From: an uncultured Gammaproteobacteria bacterium
GTDB lineage: Bacteria; Pseudomonadota; Gammaproteobacteria; JACCXJ01
Reading direction: 5' to 3'
Length of the DNA stretch: 64,000 nt
Assembly: GCA_963764725.1 (NCBI GenBank)
Contig: CAVXTM010000002.1
Coordinates: forward strand, 1-64,000
The notes under the pieces were generated by a model. That model had not been told where the DNA came from. It was given only the letters and a program-made list of their open reading frames with translations, and did no database searches. The position numbers and the translations under genes are program-made. Shown here in pieces: positions 11,134 to 62,525 of this stretch. Each line of letters starts with the position of its first letter. Positions within the stretch are counted from its first letter, which is position 1.

Positions 11134-11677
11134 ATGCAAAGACAAGGTTACAATAGAACCGCGGTTATCCTGCACTGGATACTGGCGGTATCGATCTTCT
11201 TCCTGTTCGCTTCCAGTTGGTGGATGCTGGGACTGCCACTGCCCTCTAAGGAACTGACGTTTCGTGAATTCCCGTTCCAGCTGCATAAGAATATAGGCAT
11301 TACGCTGGTTTTTCTTCTGGCCCTGTTGCTGTACGTACGTTTCAAGCATCGGCCAGCACCGGAAAATTCTTCTTCCATGAAGCCGTGGATGCACAAACTG
11401 GCATTGTTCGATCATGTCATTCTGTATGTATTGTATAATTGCCGTCTGTGTGAGCGGTTATTTGTCATCTTCCTATACGCGTTGGGATACGACCGTCTGG
11501 TGGCTGGTGGATCTGCCCAGAATAGCGGCCCCCGACGAAGACATGAATATGTTCTACTCGAATATTCACCTATGGACTGCTTGGGCGTTGCTGGCGGTGG
11601 TTGCTGTTCATGTAACCGGTGCCGTTTATCATGCCTTCCGTAATGACAGCATAGTGCGGCGGATGCTACGCTGGTAA
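11134..11677 (+). pseudogene. Cytochrome b561-family protein, +1 frameshift near 11434
   Basis: Heme His motifs LHW, LHKNIGI, DHVILY in one frame; NIHLW and HVTGAVYH...RML in the next. Confidence 0.85.
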
Positions 11678-11701
11678 ACGTTTTCAAGGCTTCATTATCT
11701 T

Positions 11702-11727
11702 AAGGGCCCGCTTTTGCGGCCCTTTTT
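11702..11727 (+). terminator. Rho-independent terminator
   Basis: AAGGGCCCGC-TTTT-GCGGCCCTT followed by a T run. Confidence 0.6.
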
Positions 11728-11961
11728 ATGTTGGTATGAAGATTCCGTAATACGAGTCATCTTGAGCAATGGAGCAAGCGGTTGTCCCGCCCGTCAGCCG
11801 CTGAACTATTCCTTCACGAGCGCTTATCCTGCGTGCGCGATTCCAGTAATCTCGCTCAGAGGGCCGAACCGGTTGCTGGAGTGGCCACCGCTCCGCGCCT
11901 TGTGCCCCACTCCTCGTGTCGAATGCCTGCGGCATTCTTCGCTCGTCGGTGGTGTCCCACA

Positions 11962-25931: not shown

Positions 25932-27227
25932 AGGGCACTTCGATAAATTCGTTTCCAGTGGTAGCTAACCGTTAAATAACCAAGGATGATTAAAGTCGGG
26001 TAAGTGGTGTTTTGTACACGGCTACCGCTTGCCTTATAGGATGCCGTTTACCATCGCTGCTTTAGGTTGCGTGGGCAAGCCGATTTCCTGGCTTGCGTCG
26101 CTCCAGTTGCAGATAGCGCATGATGTTGTAGGTGAGGTTCATCAGCGCGATCATGGTCTTGGCCCTAGCCAGTCCTATGGTGCGGATGAGTTTGCCGCCC
26201 ATGGAGTTATGCTGAAAGCCAAAGACATGCTCGACCCGGGCGCGGATGGTGGAGCGCAGGCGGTTGAGGCGCTTTTTGTGCGCACTCAGCGGTTTGCCCC
26301 GCTGGCCTTTGTAGTGGATCTGGCTCTTGAAGCCAGCCTCCCCAAGCCGCTGTTCGGTTTCCTCGGACCGATAGGCACTGTCGGCCCAGACAGAGGCTCC
26401 GGTGTTGGCTTCATCGAGCACCTCCGCTAAGAGCTGGCTATCGTGGATGGCGGCATCGGTGACGGTAAAGTTGCGGATGAGCTTGTGCTTGTTGTCCACG
26501 TTGATGTGGTTCTTGTACCCAAAGTAGCTCTTGCCGTGTTTCTTGGTCCAACGGGCGTCGGTGTCCTTCTGCCGGCGCATCGCGGGGTTGTTTTCCCAGT
26601 CCTCAGGCAGCTCGCCGCCTTTGATCGCCGCATTCTCTTCCCGAGTATTCCTCTGGCGGGGCACCGGCACGATGCTGGCATCGATCTGCCCGGCTTTTGC
26701 CTGATAGCCGCGCTCGCTGAGATAGGCATTGAAGCGCTCAAAGAGCCCCTCCAAGAGGCCTTGCTCGGCCAACACCTGCCTATAGGCCCACAGCGTGGTG
26801 GCATCGGGCACGTTGTCCTGCAGGTTGAGCCCGAGAAAGCGCATGAACGACATCCGGTCTTTGATTTGATACTCCATCTGCTGATCGGAGATGTTATACA
26901 GACTCTGCAACACTAACGCCTTGAACATCATCACCGGGTCCAAAGGCTTGCGACCGGCGGGTGATTTACGCTCCTTCTCATGGATCTTGGCGCATAGCGG
27001 ACGAAATTCCTCCCACGGGACCGACTCCTTGAGCACCACCAACGGGTCACCCATCGCGTCCAGTGCGTCATAGCGCTCCTCTACATCAAACAACCCCGGT
27101 TGCCCCATGATCATCTCCCCTTGCTGCTCTTATGGATGAGGGCCCATATTCTAACACGAGTTATATATCCGATCAGCTACTAAAAGCTATACTAAGGCCC
27201 GAGTCGAGGAATTAATCGAAGTGCCCT
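25932..27227 (-). mobile_element. IS5-family insertion sequence
   Basis: Terminal IRs AGGGCACTTCGATAAATTC / GAATTAATCGAAGTGCCCT (1 mismatch), flanked by TTA on both sides. Confidence 0.92.
26062..27114 (-). CDS. IS5-family DDE transposase
   Basis: VPDATTLW, IDASIV, KDTDARWTKK, FGYKNH, WADSAY, RARVEHVFG. Confidence 0.95.
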   Translation of the reverse strand: MIMGQPGLFDVEERYDALDAMGDPLVVLKESVPWEEFRPLCAKIHEKERKSPAGRKPLDPVMMFKALVLQSLYNISDQQMEYQIKDRMSFMRFLGLNLQDNVPDATTLWAYRQVLAEQGLLEGLFERFNAYLSERGYQAKAGQIDASIVPVPRQRNTREENAAIKGGELPEDWENNPAMRRQKDTDARWTKKHGKSYFGYKNHINVDNKHKLIRNFTVTDAAIHDSQLLAEVLDEANTGASVWADSAYRSEETEQRLGEAGFKSQIHYKGQRGKPLSAHKKRLNRLRSTIRARVEHVFGFQHNSMGGKLIRTIGLARAKTMIALMNLTYNIMRYLQLERRKPGNRLAHAT

Positions 27228-33537: not shown

Positions 33538-33807
33538 CCTCCGGGTGGTGACGGGTTGGCGCTGCCGGTACACGGCGTCTATCGGCAACAGCCGTCTGGA
33601 GTTGGCGTCTCTGTGTCGCACCGACTGACCTTAACGACAATCGCGACGGCCGTGCGCCCAGTCCAAAGCTAGCTGCCGCGAGATGAGCTTGGCCTTCCCA
33701 ATTATTTCTGCGCGTAGCCGCGCTACAGCGGATGCCGTGAAACTCCCGCCGGCAACCATTGCTCCGGCCGGTAGCAATGTTGCCTTAGAACAGGAGTGTT
33801 ACGAATG

Positions 33808-34116
33808 TCAGGACTTGTGGGCGACTTTCGGAGGCGCAGTCTTGGAAATTGCCAGATAGTTTCCCTCTGCCTTGCTGATATTGCCACCGAGATCTCCATG
33901 AAATTCTAACTTTTCATCCCAGGTGTCGAAGCAGAAAACCTGCCCTTCGTTGTCCCAGGTACTGATCGAACACTCGCTATTTACTTGCTTGCCTTGTGCT
34001 AGGCTCATGGCATTTAAATTTCCTAACGGATATTTCACATCTTGCGGTTGCGGGTTGCACCCAGCCATCAGTGTCGCCAAGGCGACGCATGTCCCCAGTT
34101 TAATATATCTACTCAT
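33808..34116 (-). CDS. Small hypothetical lipoprotein
   Basis: RBS AAGGAG; lipobox MAGC; YHS-like GQVFCF motif. Confidence 0.65.
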   Translation of the reverse strand: MSRYIKLGTCVALATLMAGCNPQPQDVKYPLGNLNAMSLAQGKQVNSECSISTWDNEGQVFCFDTWDEKLEFHGDLGGNISKAEGNYLAISKTAPPKVAHKS

Positions 34117-34193
34117 CCCACTCGCTCCTTCCACGGTTGGTTTAGTTTGCTTTCAGCGGGAGATCTCTTGCTGTCAGCATCGAGCGCCGGGCT

Positions 34194-34430
34194 TTACGCC
34201 TTCAGGTCGGAAAGCGACGCACCATAATTGATGTGAAATACGTTGGTCCCAACCAGGAGCGCTGGGACCGATTTCACACCGGCGGATTCCGCCTCGGCAA
34301 TTCGCTCTCGGTGTTGGCCAAGATGGACGATCTCCACGTCGTACTTCTTTCTATCGATGGCTTCGGCTATCGTTTGCTCGGCAGCCACACAAACCGCACA
34401 TCCAGCATGGTAAAATACAGCTCTGTTCAT
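34194..34430 (-). CDS. Small thioredoxin/glutaredoxin-like protein
   Basis: FYHAGCAVC, GVKSVPAL; RBS AGGAG. Confidence 0.85.
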   Translation of the reverse strand: MNRAVFYHAGCAVCVAAEQTIAEAIDRKKYDVEIVHLGQHRERIAEAESAGVKSVPALLVGTNVFHINYGASLSDLKA

Positions 34431-34452
34431 ACCAGTCTCCTATAATGATTAG

Positions 34453-34530
34453 GTCAATAAGTAGTATTGACACGATACTATTAAACACCGGTCTTGACTA
34501 CTTGTCAATATAATATTGACTCGATACTAT
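34453..34530. promoter_or_regulatory. Divergent promoter with two operator-like palindromes
   Basis: TAGTATTGACACGATACTA (34462-34480) and TAATATTGACTCGATACTA (34511-34529). Confidence 0.65.
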
Positions 34531-34540
34531 ATGCGTCGAG

Positions 34541-35101
34541 ATGAGCGCGCTATTGATTCACGAATACCTAGAGCGACTAGCCGGCCTTCTGCGCCACAAC
34601 GCACGGAGGTTGGGTCTCAACTACGCATTGCAGCCCGTGCATCTCGAGGTGATGCATTACCTAGCGATCTGCAATCGCTATTCGGACACGCCGCGAGCAG
34701 TTTCCGAGTATCTCGGTTTAACGAAAGGGACCGTATCTCAGAGCTTGAAGGTCCTCGAACATAAAGGTTTGATCACGAGAATCGCTGATGAGCGCGACAA
34801 GCGCGTGGTACATCTTGGCTTGAGCACTATGGGGAAGAGGTTTTTCGCGGACTACGTACCCGCGCCGGTGCTCAATGCCGCTTGCTCTCACCTCCCGAAG
34901 CAAACACAAGCACTCATCGCCGAGTCGATGAAAAACCTGCTCCTCGCTTGCCAGCGCGCCAATGAAATGAAATCTTTTGGCCCCTGCCATACCTGTATGC
35001 ATAATCGAAGGATCAAGGGGGAGTATTTTTGTGGGCTAACCCAAGAAGCATTGAGTCGCGACGATATCAAATTGATCTGCCGGGAACATACCTACGCCTA
35101 G
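34541..35101 (+). CDS. MarR-family regulator with C-terminal Cys cluster
   Basis: YLGLTKGTVSQSLKVLE, DERDKRVV; FGPCHTCMH...C...C. Confidence 0.88.
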   Translation: MSALLIHEYLERLAGLLRHNARRLGLNYALQPVHLEVMHYLAICNRYSDTPRAVSEYLGLTKGTVSQSLKVLEHKGLITRIADERDKRVVHLGLSTMGKRFFADYVPAPVLNAACSHLPKQTQALIAESMKNLLLACQRANEMKSFGPCHTCMHNRRIKGEYFCGLTQEALSRDDIKLICREHTYA

Positions 35102-38823: not shown

Positions 38824-40479
38824 CTAAGCCGCCGGCCGTTGCGTGAGCTTATCGCTCGCTTCGCGCTCCGCCTCGAGGCGTTTGATGGATGCCGATAACT
38901 CCGGAAGCACATGTGCGAAGGTAAACATGTAATAGTGGTACCCCATCAAGATAAAGGGAAGTATAAAAGGCATTTGGTCGGGGCATTTGAGAATGACCTT
39001 CCAGGCGAAGGACTGGCTTGCGCGTTTGTAATGCGCCGGCAGCCGGTGAAGGATGCGATAGAAGGACCTGAGCTGGCGTAGAAAGGATCGCAGCGTCCGG
39101 CGTTTACCGGCGCCCTGCAGTAGGAAGGACACCCCCACATGCCCGAGCCACAGAGCCCTCGCTATACGTTCCCACGCGCGACCGGGATGAGGGAGGTGAC
39201 AGAGGGCCTCAAAGGCCCGTTTGAAATACTCTTCCGGCGCATAGATCGATTGCAGGATCTGGCAATGCCCTTCCAACAATCGGATCGCGGGAATCAGGGT
39301 GACGATATTGGTATAACCCGAGGCGATCGTCTGATCGTACCCTCGGCCATCTCCTGTCAGGAGACGGCCCGTCTGCTGCATGCGGGCGTAGAGCGGGGTC
39401 CCGGGTAGGGCCACCAGCGGCCCGATCATGGCGTTGGTAATTGCCGCCTGTCCGATAAACGCGATCTGGCGAGCGAAGATGTCCTCCCCATCGCTATCGA
39501 AACCGATGATGAACCCGCCGAAGACCAGTAGACCCGCGCTTTGGATCTTATGGACGCGCCCCTCGAGCGAGCCTTTCAGGTTCTGGAACTTACGGGTCTC
39601 CTTTAGACTTTCTGCCGAGGGAGACTCGATGCCGAGAAACACCCAGGTGAAGTTGGCCCTGACCATGAGATCCAAAAGCTCACCGTCTTCGGAGAGATTC
39701 ACCGAGGCCTCGGTCCCGTAGAAGAAGGGGTGCCCGTGGGCGGCGTTCCAGGCGGCCAGTTCCACCAGGAACCGCTTGACTTCCTTCTTGTTGCCGATGA
39801 AGTTGTCATCGACGATAAAGATCATCCCCCGGTATCCGGTCTCAAGGATCGCCCCCAGCTCCCGCAACACCTGAGCCGGTGTTTTGGTCCTTGGCTTGCG
39901 GCCGAACATGACGATGATGTCGCAGAACTCGCATTGAAACGGGCAACCTCGGGAGAATTGAATCGGGATGATTCCATACGCGTCGATGTTCAGGAGCTCG
40001 AAGCGGGGGACAGGGGTGCTGGAGACATCGGGCTTCTCCTCGCTGGTATACCTGTCTTTATAAATACCTCGTTCCAGATCCTCGAGGAAGGCCGGCCAGG
40101 TGATCTCGCCTTCGCTCAGCACCAGGACATCGCAATGCGGCGCGCATTCAGCCGCACAGGCCGTCGGATAGGGGCCTCCAAAGACGATCAACTTGTGTGC
40201 GGCCTTGCAGTGCTCGGCCACTTGAAAGAGCGACGGTTTCTGTGGAAGCATCGCCGAAAAACACACGATATCGGCCCAGCCGAGGTCCTCCTCCGTCAAG
40301 GCTTCGCAGTTCAAGTCCACCAGGCGGATCTCATAGTGGCTGGAGGTCAAGGCTGCGATGGTGATAAGCCCGAGCGGCGGCATCAGGGCTTGCTTGCCGA
40401 TGAGAGGAAGAAAGTACTGCATTCCCCAATAGGTCTTCGGAAATTCCGGGTAGACCATCAAAAGGTGCCGATAGCGCAT
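38824..40479 (-). CDS. B12-binding radical SAM protein (DUF4070 family)
   Basis: VYPEFPKTYW, PPLGLITIAA, GGPY, SRGCPFQCEFC, VDDNFIGN; likely start MRYRH (upstream GTG at 40584 is the alternative). Confidence 0.9.
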   Translation of the reverse strand: MRYRHLLMVYPEFPKTYWGMQYFLPLIGKQALMPPLGLITIAALTSSHYEIRLVDLNCEALTEEDLGWADIVCFSAMLPQKPSLFQVAEHCKAAHKLIVFGGPYPTACAAECAPHCDVLVLSEGEITWPAFLEDLERGIYKDRYTSEEKPDVSSTPVPRFELLNIDAYGIIPIQFSRGCPFQCEFCDIIVMFGRKPRTKTPAQVLRELGAILETGYRGMIFIVDDNFIGNKKEVKRFLVELAAWNAAHGHPFFYGTEASVNLSEDGELLDLMVRANFTWVFLGIESPSAESLKETRKFQNLKGSLEGRVHKIQSAGLLVFGGFIIGFDSDGEDIFARQIAFIGQAAITNAMIGPLVALPGTPLYARMQQTGRLLTGDGRGYDQTIASGYTNIVTLIPAIRLLEGHCQILQSIYAPEEYFKRAFEALCHLPHPGRAWERIARALWLGHVGVSFLLQGAGKRRTLRSFLRQLRSFYRILHRLPAHYKRASQSFAWKVILKCPDQMPFILPFILMGYHYYMFTFAHVLPELSASIKRLEAEREASDKLTQRPAA

Positions 40480-40498
40480 GCTCAAAGCGTCGGGGAAC

Positions 40499-40513
40499 GG
40501 GCGGCTCACCTTG
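40499..40513. repeat. 15-bp direct repeat, left copy
   Basis: GGGCGGCTCACCTTG, identical at 42937-42951. Confidence 0.85.
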
Positions 40514-40580
40514 GCCGCGGGCAACTGGAGATGATCGGCTGGAAGTACCGCAGCGCCGACGCCTCGTTCGACCAACCCGG

Positions 40581-41630
40581 TCACGTCCCGCCTCTGAGCT
40601 CATTCACCACGGCCCGTATCCCCTTTGCAACGTCGGTGAACGCCTCGTCGATATCCGTCCAGCTCTTGATGGGCTTGGCGTCCTTTGGTAGGGCCTGCAA
40701 TTTACCGAAAGGCGCGCCCGCCCAGTTAACATTGCGCAGAATGACCGGGATGACCCGCGCAGTTCTGGCCTCATGCCGCGCCATGCCGCGCTTGAGCTCG
40801 ATGTCCCAGCAGTAGTCGGAGGCGAGGAAATCGTCGCTGACAAGCAGCAGGATGATCTCGGCGGATTCGAGGTGCTCGTCGATAGCACCGGCCCATTCGT
40901 TGCCAGCGCCGATCTTGCGGTCGTGCCAGTCTTCGATCACGCCCTGCCGCTTCAGAATGCTGAGGTGCTTGACCAGCTTGTCCTTGTACTCTTCGTCTTT
41001 ATGGGAATAAGAGAAGAAGATGCGAATCTTCTTTTTCTGTTCGTTCGTAGGCTCCTCCTTGTCCCTGAGCGTGATGCCTAGCACTTCGGCCAGATCATGC
41101 GTGCCGTCGAGCGCGCGCGTTATGTAACTCCAGGGAACGAACCTTCCATCGATCTTATCGTGATTCGTCCAATCGGCCAACCGTTTGTCGAGGCCGAACC
41201 ACGGGACGTCGAGGTCCTCCGCGATGACCCGGATCGACTTCGACCGGAACAAGTAGCGGATCCCCTCCACAGCGGCGACGTGATTACCGTCCCCAAGGAT
41301 CCACTTGGGGATCTGGAGAATGGCGAGCTCTGTGTTCCCGCCACCCTGGATCGATGTGAAGCGCCGCACCATCGAACCGCCGTAGGGATCCTTGACTTCG
41401 GCATCCGTCACGCTAATCCCGCGCGAAGCAAGCCCCGACCGCATCCGATCGCTCAACTCCGCGGAAAGCCGCATGTCGACGAGAGCGGCCGCGGGGTCGG
41501 GGCGTGGAGCCGACGGCGTCAGACGATCGAACAGATTCGCAAATCCGCTCGACCGCGCCACGGCCTCGCCGCCGGACTGGATGCCTTTGAGCGAGATCTC
41601 GGTCGCCTGTGGATCCATCTCGCCGCTCAC
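40581..41630 (-). CDS. TIR-domain protein with unknown N-terminal domain
   Basis: IFFSYSHKD, WHDRKIGAGNEW, LLVSDDFLASDYCWDIEL, VIPVILR. Confidence 0.9.
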   Translation of the reverse strand: MSGEMDPQATEISLKGIQSGGEAVARSSGFANLFDRLTPSAPRPDPAAALVDMRLSAELSDRMRSGLASRGISVTDAEVKDPYGGSMVRRFTSIQGGGNTELAILQIPKWILGDGNHVAAVEGIRYLFRSKSIRVIAEDLDVPWFGLDKRLADWTNHDKIDGRFVPWSYITRALDGTHDLAEVLGITLRDKEEPTNEQKKKIRIFFSYSHKDEEYKDKLVKHLSILKRQGVIEDWHDRKIGAGNEWAGAIDEHLESAEIILLLVSDDFLASDYCWDIELKRGMARHEARTARVIPVILRNVNWAGAPFGKLQALPKDAKPIKSWTDIDEAFTDVAKGIRAVVNELRGGT

Positions 41631-42868
41631 ACGCTTGCGGGCGCCCGGTTGGAGTCGCCCCTGATCCTTGGCACGCTGAGGAGCTGCGCGGCACGCTCGG
41701 CGAGTGCGTCGGGATCAGAGTCGCCGAGCACCTCGTGGATGGCCGAGTCACTCGGCAGGTGGACCAGGCTGACGCCTTCGCGCTCACCGAATGTGCGCAG
41801 ACTGTCACCGATCGCTCCGCCGACCAGTACGAGGAACGGGCGTACGCCGAGTCCAAGTCCTCCGTTCTCAGCGGCTAACCGCTCCTGCAGGATGTTCGCA
41901 GCCGAGAGCAGGGTGCTTGCCATCGACCAATCCGAGGTTTTGGCGCCGGTCGCACCCCGCTTGACGACCACGGCGAGAACGCGCTCGCCACCGTAGGCGA
42001 GAAAATCGACTTCCTTCAAGAGTGGATCCACATCCGGATCTCCGGTCGTGGGGGAGGTGATAGCCTTGTAACCCGCGGCTTCGAGAAGTTTCCTGACGCT
42101 CTCCTCGGCACGACGGTCTGCGGCGCCAAGCGGCTTCTCTTTTCCGATCTCGGAAAGCGGCAAGCTCGTGTAGAACAGGACTGCGGTCAGAACCGCGGCG
42201 AACGCTGTCCCTCCCGGATCGAGAAGGAATACCGAGACCAGCACGACTCCAATCGCCAGCGCGGCCACCAGCCACAATTTCGCGGGATTCGCCAGCAGGG
42301 CTAGAAACGGCGTGCGGGTCCCCGGGACCGTCGGGTACAGCTTTGCCGCGAGAGCTTTCGCTACTTCGGCGGGGACGGAAAAAAAAGTGACGATCACCAG
42401 GGCCGCGGACGCTCGCCTCCCCCAGACGGACGGATTCCCGATCAGATCGGCGCCAACGATGAGGACGCTACCGCTAGCAATCCAGTAGAACAGTGCATAG
42501 ACGATGAAGCCAGTCAGGCTGATGGCGGTGGCCTGTCCTACCGCACTCCACAGGCCCAGGGCCCACTCTCCCAGAGTGGGCTGAAACGTCGATCTCGACT
42601 CGATTTTCCTGATGCCAACGAAGCCGCCGATCGCTGCCGCAGCCGCCACGAGCGGAAGCCATCTCCATTCGTCGATCAGCAGCAGAAAAGGAAGTAGGCC
42701 GAATACGAAGCCGAACGCCGTGGCAAGCACCAGCGCGGGCTTGTTCGGGGCGAACGTCTCGGGAACAGAGGGGATCATGCCTTGAACCTTGCGCCTTGTC
42801 AGAGGCGACCGGCGCATCATACGTCCATCGCGTGCCCGATCACAGCCTCCGACCGTCGGACCCGCCAT
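41627..42868 (-). CDS. ~6-TM membrane protein with C-terminal PD-(D/E)XK-like domain (start may be 42778)
   Basis: Hydrophobic N-terminal half; AEESVRKLLEAAGY...EVDFLAYGGERVLAVVVK; GTGA overlap with the TIR gene. Confidence 0.75.
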   Translation of the reverse strand: MAGPTVGGCDRARDGRMMRRSPLTRRKVQGMIPSVPETFAPNKPALVLATAFGFVFGLLPFLLLIDEWRWLPLVAAAAAIGGFVGIRKIESRSTFQPTLGEWALGLWSAVGQATAISLTGFIVYALFYWIASGSVLIVGADLIGNPSVWGRRASAALVIVTFFSVPAEVAKALAAKLYPTVPGTRTPFLALLANPAKLWLVAALAIGVVLVSVFLLDPGGTAFAAVLTAVLFYTSLPLSEIGKEKPLGAADRRAEESVRKLLEAAGYKAITSPTTGDPDVDPLLKEVDFLAYGGERVLAVVVKRGATGAKTSDWSMASTLLSAANILQERLAAENGGLGLGVRPFLVLVGGAIGDSLRTFGEREGVSLVHLPSDSAIHEVLGDSDPDALAERAAQLLSVPRIRGDSNRAPASV

Positions 42869-42936
42869 GGGCTACCCCGAATTGCTCAAAATTGCGCGAT
42901 CATCCAGCTCGGTGCGGGAAGGATATCGGATCGCAT

Positions 42937-42951
42937 GGGCGGCTCACCTTG
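42937..42951. repeat. 15-bp direct repeat, right copy
   Basis: GGGCGGCTCACCTTG. Confidence 0.85.
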
Positions 42952-42971: not shown

Positions 42972-43370
42972 TTACACCCGGTCCAAGCTCATGCGGCCCG
43001 GGCCGTTAAACACTACGTAGAGCATACCACCCATAATTGCCAGGTTTTTCTGGAACTGGATAAGCTGCATCTTCACTTGCTCGGGGTCTACCGCCCAGAA
43101 GTCGTGAAAGATCAGGGTGGCTGGGATCAGGAACAGGACAATAGCAAGCGCCGCCCAGCGAGCTTTGTAGCCGAGGGCGAGTAGCAGGCCACCGCCCAAC
43201 TCGATGAGGATAGCGATAATCAGCGACACCTCCACCATCGGTATGCCCTTGCCGGCCATGGAGGCCGCAGTGTCCGCAAATCCGGTGATCTTGCTTAAGC
43301 CCGAGCTAATGAAGATGAGGGCCAGTAGGACGCGGCCCACGAGGAGGCCAAGTGGCTGTACGGTGTTCAT
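42972..43370 (-). CDS. DoxX-family membrane protein
   Basis: GRVLLALIFISSGLSKI, IELGGG, FHDFW, KNLAIMGG. Confidence 0.92.
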   Translation of the reverse strand: MNTVQPLGLLVGRVLLALIFISSGLSKITGFADTAASMAGKGIPMVEVSLIIAILIELGGGLLLALGYKARWAALAIVLFLIPATLIFHDFWAVDPEQVKMQLIQFQKNLAIMGGMLYVVFNGPGRMSLDRV

Positions 43371-62099: not shown

Positions 62100-62525
62100 A
62101 TGAACTGGAAAGAACAGCTCGACAAGGCGATCGACACGCTGAAACAGGTGGCCGAAAGCGATACGGTAAAGGGCCTCACGGCCAAGGCGAAGGAGACCGC
62201 CAGCAAGCTCGCCCAGCGAGCGAGGAGCGGGGCCCTGGGTGCCGCGGAGGCCTTCATCGAGGCCAATTCCGATCCGTCGGCACTTAAGGTCCGCTATCTC
62301 AACGCGGACATCAGCGTGCTATCGCCGTCCGATGGCATCGAGGTGAGCCGCCCGAGCCCGGGCAGCGTGGTCATCTCCGACGGCGCCGGCAATGGGATCG
62401 TCATCAACGCGGCGGCAGACAAGGCCTCCGTCTCCGAGCGGATCGGGACCGTTGCGCAACTCGGGTCCAACAGTTACGACCTCGGCGTCGAAGACGGCGT
62501 CAACGTCGTCGTATTGAAGGACTGA
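62100..62525 (+). CDS. Hypothetical protein
   Basis: RBS GAGGAGG; GC3-biased ORF. Confidence 0.7.
   Translation: MNWKEQLDKAIDTLKQVAESDTVKGLTAKAKETASKLAQRARSGALGAAEAFIEANSDPSALKVRYLNADISVLSPSDGIEVSRPSPGSVVISDGAGNGIVINAAADKASVSERIGTVAQLGSNSYDLGVEDGVNVVVLKD

Follow-up and report, generated by a model that had tools for sequence, protein, structure and literature searches.

A TIR protein and a six-helix membrane protein of degenerate nuclease fold on a small insert: a candidate Thoeris-like pair

TIR-based immune signalling is common to bacteria, plants and animals, and to our knowledge the known receptors of TIR-made signals are few: SLOG, Macro, TPR and some unnamed domains. The described systems nearest to the locus presented here are the Thoeris systems with membrane effectors (type II with TM-Macro, type V with DUF2270 and type VII with SLATT), whose effectors share a similar layout of transmembrane (TM) helices and a cytoplasmic part. 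The locus is a pair of genes in a stretch of 64,000 nucleotides from an uncultured gammaproteobacterium (contig CAVXTM010000002.1, positions 1 to 64,000; hereafter the window), one encoding a protein with a TIR domain and the other a membrane protein with a nuclease fold. Like those Thoeris systems it is a two-gene operon, its TIR carries the catalytic Glu and strongly matches ThsB, and the partner combines TM helices with a predicted cytoplasmic domain. Unlike the Thoeris effectors, the partner has no Macro, SLOG, SLATT, DUF2270 or other Pfam or PADLOC match, and its cytoplasmic domain has a PD-(D/E)XK fold; in addition, the TIR is C-terminal, behind a 195-residue domain that matches no family. 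Among the described Thoeris effector types (SIR2-SLOG, TM-Macro, caspase-like, DUF2270, DUF6650, SLATT and CMP hydrolase), the membrane protein matches none.

There is precedent for such pairings in a recent preprint, in the portions of it used here: one TIR cluster pairs with many effectors, several of them with TM helices and a cytoplasmic domain, and seven new types were validated by that pairing logic (10.64898/2025.12.03.692087). The same portions state that the TPR domain of the effector ThsI presumably perceives cyclic ADP-ribose and that this domain had earlier been predicted to act in TIR-mediated signalling (10.64898/2025.12.03.692087). They also mention 29 putative configurations of TIR and effector, some with unnamed TM proteins or DNases (10.64898/2025.12.03.692087), and the present pair might be among these. 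Outside the configuration table of that preprint, we found no description in the literature of a TIR paired with a TM plus restriction-endonuclease-fold partner.

We tentatively favor a reading, to which we give a little short of an even chance, in which the pair is a two-gene Thoeris-like TIR signalling system on a small insert and serves as an anti-phage suicide switch. An infection cue would be sensed by the N-terminal domain of the TIR protein; the TIR domain, in which Glu278 is intact, would make an ADP-ribose-derived signal from NAD+; the membrane protein would bind that signal through its cytoplasmic nuclease-fold domain, which would serve as a binder and not a cutter; and the six-helix membrane part would then damage the membrane and halt the infected cell. 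Several observations argue for this reading: (i) the TIR protein matches the ThsB model and retains the Glu; (ii) the discovery logic and the TM effectors of the preprint, in the portions used, fit it; (iii) the pairing is conserved and catalysis has been lost in the TIR-paired clade and (iv) relatives of the membrane protein carry TPR-S fusions.

The two genes and their conserved pairing

Both genes lie on the minus strand, and the gene order is doxX, membrane-protein gene, TIR gene and a gene for a radical SAM (rSAM)/DUF4070 protein, all on that strand. The features of the pair are as follows.

40581..41630, minus strand: TIR-protein gene, 349 aa, N-terminal domain plus C-terminal TIR, GTG start
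41630..41046, minus strand: N-terminal domain (residues 1-195), no family match
41021..40599, minus strand: TIR domain (residues ~204-344), Pfam TIR_2 and PADLOC PDLC00420
40797..40799, minus strand: codon of Glu278 in CWDIEL, invariant in 8/8
41627..42778, minus strand: membrane-protein gene, 383 aa, six TM helices plus a predicted cytoplasmic PD-(D/E)XK-fold domain
42139..41663, minus strand: PD-(D/E)XK-fold domain (residues 214-372), from structure matches
41960..41968, minus strand: codons of V271-V272-K273, degenerate (D/E)xK; family column E 51, D 16, Q 14 of 117

At 41627-41630 the two genes overlap in GTGA, which supplies both the GTG that starts the TIR gene and the TGA that ends the membrane-protein gene. 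The open reading frame (ORF) of the membrane protein spans 42868..41627 on the minus strand, and its true start is the ATG at 42778, because, compared with the window, six related copies have one or two 1-nt indels ahead of this ATG, and because the database form, P0001, is 383 aa long. A scan for promoters and terminators gave no signal exceeding shuffle expectation. A reading of this DNA made from its letters alone (the sequence-only reading) had described the GTGA overlap, a protein of about six TM helices with a VVK-type PD-(D/E)XK fold, a TIR that keeps the Glu in CWDIEL and an unrecognised N-terminal domain of ~190 aa. All four descriptions agree with what we found, namely with the ORF coordinates, with the AlphaFold2 model and structure matches at up to Z 12.0, with the TIR_2 match (7.3e-14) and E278 in 8/8 relatives, and with the lack of any family for residues 1-195.

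The coincidence of longest-contig sizes, pair by pair, leads us to infer that the pairing is conserved well beyond the genus. P0004 (TM, 55% identity to the window protein, as are all identities in this comparison) and P0281 (TIR, 75% for its cluster representative P0006) share a longest contig of 184,103 bp; P0274 (TM, 55% for its representative P0004) and P0006 (TIR, 75%) share one of 12,242 bp; and P0125 (TM, 42%) and P0008 (TIR, 62-63%) share one of 3,795 bp. The two proteins also have consecutive accession numbers in one public metagenome-assembled genome. At the degenerate motif the three TIR-paired lineages read AVVVK, AVGVK and AVAVK, the acidic residue being gone in all of them, whereas the next relatives (P0126-P0128) and the fusion proteins P0138, P0237 and P0279 retain E or D. 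The loss in the TIR-paired lineages is probably a single evolutionary event.

The two genes differ in how often they are broken. The TM gene carries three distinct frameshifts in 3/7 distinct copies (a 10-bp deletion, a 1-nt insertion, which is possibly an assembly error, and a 2-bp deletion), found in separate metagenome copies at aa ~62 (L021), aa 91 (L024) and aa 308 (L025). The TIR gene is intact in 6/6 complete copies, and both genes are intact in the window and in three other copies. A frameshifted TM gene beside an intact TIR gene fits a membrane protein that is the toxic effector.

The membrane protein and its nuclease fold

An AlphaFold2 model built from 115 sequences (mean pLDDT 94.6, pTM 0.88) has six long helices spanning residues 13-210 and, after them, an alpha/beta domain (214-372), which the positive-inside rule would place in the cytoplasm. 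Alignment of this domain with VIA-align against 48,161 chains gave 8 chains at Z ≥8, among them AF1548 (1y88; Z 12.0, rmsd 2.3 over 110 aligned residues), NucS (Z 10.6), Can2 (Z 10.1 and 9.9), VC1899 (Z 9.9) and an XisH-like chain (Z 9.4). The nuclease domains of AF1548, NucS, Can2 and VC1899 thus have the same fold as residues 214-372, but the present protein differs from these four in having no CARF or other sensor domain, in its six TM helices and in its VVK; identity is 10-19%. In Foldseek the EndoMS and XisH rows reached a probability of 1.00, but with E values of only ~0.02-0.03. FliP/SctR-like rows for the TM part (Z 6.6 and 5.9) are not meaningful for helical bundles and were set aside, as were the Atlas leads for the protein, all below 0.9, namely Mrr_cat / NA-iREase1 (0.77) and clusters without a name.

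The acidic residue of (D/E)xK is a metal ligand in the PD-(D/E)XK superfamily. The domain has the alpha-beta-beta-beta-alpha-beta core of this superfamily (Z 12.0), and D258 and K273 of the catalytic D...(D/E)xK are present, but position 271 is V. Judged from its residues, the domain is predicted to be inactive despite the shared fold, and it is the loss of this acidic residue that leads us to consider the fold a binder. The alternative that the membrane protein is an active membrane-anchored nuclease, with the TIR protein as its accessory, appears very improbable to us. The strength of the fold match, the retention of D258 and K273 and the full D, E/D and K set in 45/117 family members are what one would cite for it, yet in the TIR-paired lineages the acidic residue is V (here) or G or A (the other two).

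These family counts come from a MAFFT alignment of 117 sequences (the query, P0004 and 115 of the 149 other listed matches, 34 having been dropped as outside 340-430 aa). In it the column of D258 is D in 106/117, that of position 271 is E in 51, D in 16 and Q in 14, and that of K273 is K in 72 and R in 18. The most conserved elements are G236-Y237, a loop P243-(R)-T-G, D251-P-L and P314.

The family itself has no name in the collections that we used. Up to E 0.1 the membrane protein had no Pfam, PADLOC or NCBIfam match, bar one sub-threshold Pfam row (Tmemb_14, E 0.071, 14.2 bits vs a cut-off of 24.8), and Pfam, NCBIfam and PADLOC (2023) hold no model for the family. When 115 members were scanned, weak Hjc similarity appeared in 7 and weak AHJR-like similarity in 7, with no Pfam or PADLOC name. 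A word-based search yielded four clusters; a HMMER scan of 1.84 billion representatives yielded 309 proteins at E ≤0.001 and 56 at ≤1e-30, most of the matched members being ~385 aa long and matching end to end. Of the checks proposed by the sequence-only reading, Foldseek returned weak nuclease-fold rows for the membrane protein, the N-terminal domain of the TIR protein having no usable model, and PADLOC returned the ThsB model for the TIR protein and no model for the membrane protein.

Some relatives carry the TM plus PD-(D/E)XK module at the C-terminus of larger proteins (E 3.8e-52 to 1.5e-20): P0138 joins TPR-S and patatin to it, P0237 patatin, and P0279 pYEATS, TPR-S and patatin. These homologs differ from the present pair in being single polypeptides that retain an intact ExK, carry patatin as effector and lack a TIR.

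The TIR protein: signalling or NAD+ depletion

The TIR protein has a Pfam TIR_2 match over residues 204-304 (E 7.3e-14; 52.7 bits vs a cut-off of 28), a second Pfam TIR-type score of 26.9 bits vs a cut-off of 21.3 and a PADLOC match to the ThsB model PDLC00420 at 8.2e-61. The Glu of CWDIEL, E278, is invariant in 8/8 aligned full-length relatives (alignment A3), and we take it to be the catalytic Glu by comparison with other TIR NADases; the protein thus has the ThsB-type TIR with Glu that characterizes Thoeris (PDLC00420, TIR_2 and E278). In the model of the TIR part, pLDDT per 10-residue block is ~76-89 except for a single block at 57, and this part matches TIR structures. The N-terminal domain of 195 residues had no Pfam, PADLOC or NCBIfam match and no Atlas match, and its AlphaFold2 model, from 8 sequences, is below pLDDT 50 at residues 1-59 and 75-169. 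It is present in four database clusters only, perhaps also in P0038, and a local profile of it found no match in the patatin fusions or other members of the TM family.

The TIR subfamily is very large and tightly conserved (5,922 proteins at E ≤0.001 among 7,999 candidates), many members being 60-72% identical over the domain, and it is fused to CHAT, caspase, NB-ARC, FGE-sulfatase, beta-helix, kinase and effector-associated domains. Its nearest solved TIR is that of Cat1 (5.9e-08 by sequence and 3.2e-05 by Foldseek), which does not separate signalling from NAD depletion. The locus thus resembles the TIR NADase effectors (Cat1, SPARTA TIR-APAZ and STAND TIRs) in its TIR, whose subfamily is widely fused to sensor or adaptor domains, but unlike them it has no CARF, Argonaute or NTPase partner; its partner is the membrane protein. 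The host genome has 20 TIR_2 matches, and the other 19 all have an N-terminal TIR, joined to a Roc/Ras GTPase, a NACHT-like (STAND-like) ATPase, TPR-S, TPR, FGE-sulfatase or WD40. For a 4.2-Mb genome this is an unusually large TIR repertoire (contigs C5, C8-C13, C15, C16 and C18; L036-L054).

The main alternative, conceivable if on balance unlikely, is that the TIR protein is itself the killer, an NADase docked through its N-terminal domain on the membrane protein, which would act as sensor or scaffold. A membrane-level trigger (entry of DNA or stress on the envelope) would free or cluster the TIR and so deplete NAD+, and in this lineage the TIR would have taken over killing from an ancestral nuclease. 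Complex prediction for the two proteins lends this weak support, with a median score of 0.48 (runs of 0.58, 0.01 and 0.48) vs 0.00 for the best control; no fewer than 24% of contacts are shared between the runs, and pLDDT for the partner is 58 or higher. In calibration, the mark was reached by 116/157 solved complexes and 2/215 mismatched pairs, and at scores of ≤0.60, where 18/157 solved complexes and both passing mismatches fall, a pass is likelier wrong unless the prior is high. The 4-bp overlap of start and stop, which suggests co-production, is in keeping with docking. An effector swap would fit the wider family, which mostly keeps D...(E/D)xK while the TIR-paired clade alone has lost it, and another effector, patatin, is joined to the same module in relatives. 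That the nearest solved TIR is the effector Cat1 points the same way, as do the other 19 TIR genes of the genome, which encode N-terminal TIRs on GTPase, STAND-like, WD40, TPR and FGE proteins. Nevertheless, the complex score lies in the weak band, with one of three runs at 0.01, and the strong PADLOC match to ThsB favors a signalling TIR. Moreover, a TM gene that is often frameshifted beside an intact TIR gene would be odd if the membrane protein were a regulator restraining a toxic NADase.

Several points also count against the Thoeris-like signalling reading. The neighbours in the window are housekeeping or miscellaneous genes (rSAM, amidohydrolase, doxX, parAB and the atp operon), and the same gap holds non-defence cargo in other genomes. 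Homologs of the two genes had been expected to co-occur and to do so in defence islands; the first part stands, as the pair recurs in distant lineages, and the second does not hold for the window. We know of no nuclease fold that serves as a receptor of TIR products, and the TPR-S domain in the fusions suggests that reception could lie outside the nuclease fold. In thousands of proteins the TIR subfamily is joined to CHAT, caspase, NB-ARC and adaptor domains, and there it may be a plain NADase effector, and the solved TIR nearest by sequence, Cat1, is an NAD-degrading effector. Complex prediction weakly supports direct contact, which a diffusible signal does not need. Finally, the pairing with a TIR is seen in three lineages of a family that has ~300 more distant members. 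The more specific proposal that the dead restriction-endonuclease fold has been recruited to receive a nucleotide made by the TIR, and in this way to gate a six-helix membrane effector of a new kind, seems to us rather doubtful.

The insert, its site and what the pair may mean

The pair lies between two copies of an exact direct repeat, with flanking genes close to either side.

38824..40479, minus strand: B12-binding radical SAM / DUF4070 flanking gene, ATG at 40479, Pfam and NCBIfam matches
40499..40513, no strand: direct repeat copy 1, GGGCGGCTCACCTTG, exact, 19 bp upstream of the rSAM ATG
40514..42936, minus strand: inserted unit, 2,423 bp between the repeat copies, missing from the empty sites of genomes G008 and G002
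42937..42951, no strand: direct repeat copy 2, GGGCGGCTCACCTTG, exact, 20 bp downstream of the doxX stop
42972..43370, minus strand: doxX flanking gene, Pfam DoxX 2.2e-22

The two copies are spaced 2,438 bp apart and are the only ones of the 15-mer in the 4,214,073-base genome, so that the exact 15-bp repeat which the sequence-only reading had seen in both flanking gaps is indeed a genome-unique pair. By arithmetic, the odds of an exact 15-mer in both gaps (~100 and ~190 bp) by chance are ~1 in 10^5. When up to 2 mismatches were allowed, the window held 4 matches vs a mean of 0.37 in 100 window shuffles; the near-copies at 62339 and 63036 were dismissed as recombination sites, since they lie inside coding regions and look like chance. 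The GC content of the inserted unit is 0.622 vs 0.600 for the window.

A DNA search of 41 related genomes, with inspection of junctions, found the empty site in the same-genus genomes G008 and G002, which have the rSAM flank, one 15-mer with 2-3 changed letters and the doxX flank. With the insert and one repeat copy taken out, the doxX stop and the rSAM ATG would be 54 bp apart, which is exactly how they lie in G008 and G002. Public contigs from two cave-metagenome runs of different studies (X3 and X7) likewise join 40497 to 42940 and skip 2,442 bp. The shorter side of the X7 junction contig is 62 letters long (depth 13.5, with cassette contigs alongside at ~15) and that of the X3 contig merely 23 letters; since the contigs were matched at 88% likeness, a sister species present in the sample may be their source. 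The predicted 54 bp and the one-repeat empty site proposed by the sequence-only reading were thus both found, and the TIR and membrane-protein pair is a discrete insert. The empty sites of G008 and G002, the cargo of G001 and G007 described below and the junction of G005 on contig C252 come from unpublished genomes.

The TM gene is present in 3/15 genomes of the order (G000, G003 and G005), all of a single genus, and on six public contigs at 91-93% protein identity; scans of genomes and metagenomes found relatives of it only at ≥91% identity. The family occurred in 1/400 sampled genomes of the class and 1/401 of the phylum (G000 only in both). By tblastn it was not found in 72,556 plasmids (with the window protein, P0128 and P0143 as queries) or in 50,697 phages (with the window protein as sole query).

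Other cargo occupies the same gap. G007 has a SnoaL-like gene and a Slp lipoprotein gene there (L017:1990-2962) and G001 a 7.9-kb insert with vanadium-peroxidase-like, multihaem cytochrome and cytochrome b561 genes (L013:1540-9496), and in G006 META-domain and trypsin-like genes lie between doxX and parA (L016:1982-4321). The doxX-rSAM gap is a general insertion hotspot and not a defence island. In a comparison of junctions, every duplication at the hotspot includes the 15-mer, and the reach of the duplication varies from 15 to ~390 bp, being 15 bp in the window, at least 27 bp in L022, 68-69 bp in G005, about 310 bp in G001 and about 390 bp, as inferred from two contigs, in G003. The inserted unit contains the two genes and no recombinase gene, and among the 25 inverted-repeat pairs listed (of 31) none places its arms at the two ends of the unit. 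Of the features of a self-mobile element, the locus therefore has direct repeats and a one-copy empty site and lacks a transposase or recombinase of its own and terminal inverted repeats. The term "mobile module" used by the sequence-only reading is accordingly apt for the outcome of insertion (repeats and empty sites) and not for its mechanism. Cargo may have entered through a crossover at the 15-mer core, whether site-specific or driven by homology.

A larger form of the element could exist. Homology stops exactly at repeat copy 2 in L022, L024 and run X1, and at this 42937/8 boundary L022, L024 and an X1 contig have an extra 1.5-kb piece with a 405-aa ORF. This ORF (L022:6590-7807; L024:1-578; a 1,998-nt X1 contig) immediately precedes the TM gene and shares its strand; it had no Pfam, PADLOC or PDB match, and it could be a third gene of that larger form. 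Near the hotspot there is also a multi-copy repeat family of ~100-200 bp (74-90% identity; L014:622-832 and many places on G000 contigs C4, C12, C16 and C18), which stands beside a partial doxX copy in G003 and also at the left end of the G001 insert, and which may take part in rearrangements at the hotspot. A DDE transposase gene lies at window 26062-27227, and ~140 bp by it (27088-27227) recur at ~96% identity on C12, C18 and the end of the G003 cassette contig.

On one side of the cassette, the window carries an IS transposase, Ada, an AlkB-like oxygenase, a TonB-dependent receptor, a BlaR1-like peptidase, MarR, an ABC transporter and an amidohydrolase; on the other, it carries doxX, parA, parB and atpI/B. 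PADLOC matches near the cassette are generic ATPase similarities, and no defence genes adjoin it. Adjacency to defence genes was viewed in the contexts of close relatives: in L023 and L025 the neighbour is a DUF4062-TPR protein with a candidate PDC-S60 match (2.8e-26), and in L021 an upstream ORF matches PD-Lambda-2_B over 50 residues (6.8e-17). Around the MarR-family gene there is a patch of low GC (window 33600-35100; 0.50-0.53 vs ~0.60). The rSAM gene of L022 is largely deleted, and a ParE-toxin gene (11620-11955) lies a few kb from the L022 cassette on the rSAM side, which maps to ~window 37.1-37.5 kb.

The setting bears on another explanation, that the pair is a module for conflict or addiction whose target is not phage, or else a currently functionless passenger, in decay, on a recombination hotspot. 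A site that elsewhere carries SnoaL and Slp genes, a vanadium-peroxidase/cytochrome island or META and trypsin genes, a TM gene broken in 3/7 copies, the lack of defence genes beside the cassette in the window and the failure to find the family in plasmids or phages would all suit it. However, both genes are intact here and in three other copies, the pair has been retained over divergence to 42-55% (TM) and 62-75% (TIR) identity, the catalytic Glu is invariant, and the two other contexts with PDC-S60 and PD-Lambda-2_B matches (the latter over a short stretch) offer candidate defence neighbours. We therefore regard this explanation as quite unlikely.

If the Thoeris-like signalling reading is true, a nuclease fold would join the list of TIR-signal receptors, and an unnamed membrane-protein family seen almost only in metagenomes would gain its first function. 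It would also provide a natural before-and-after case of a nuclease effector that loses catalysis once a TIR partner arrives. If the dead fold is indeed the receptor, the pair would be a further Thoeris type with a receptor fold absent from the described types, and at the same time a member of a ~300-cluster family that is otherwise built on an active membrane-anchored nuclease. The clean empty and occupied sites make the locus a compact test case for how defence-like cargo moves without a recombinase of its own.

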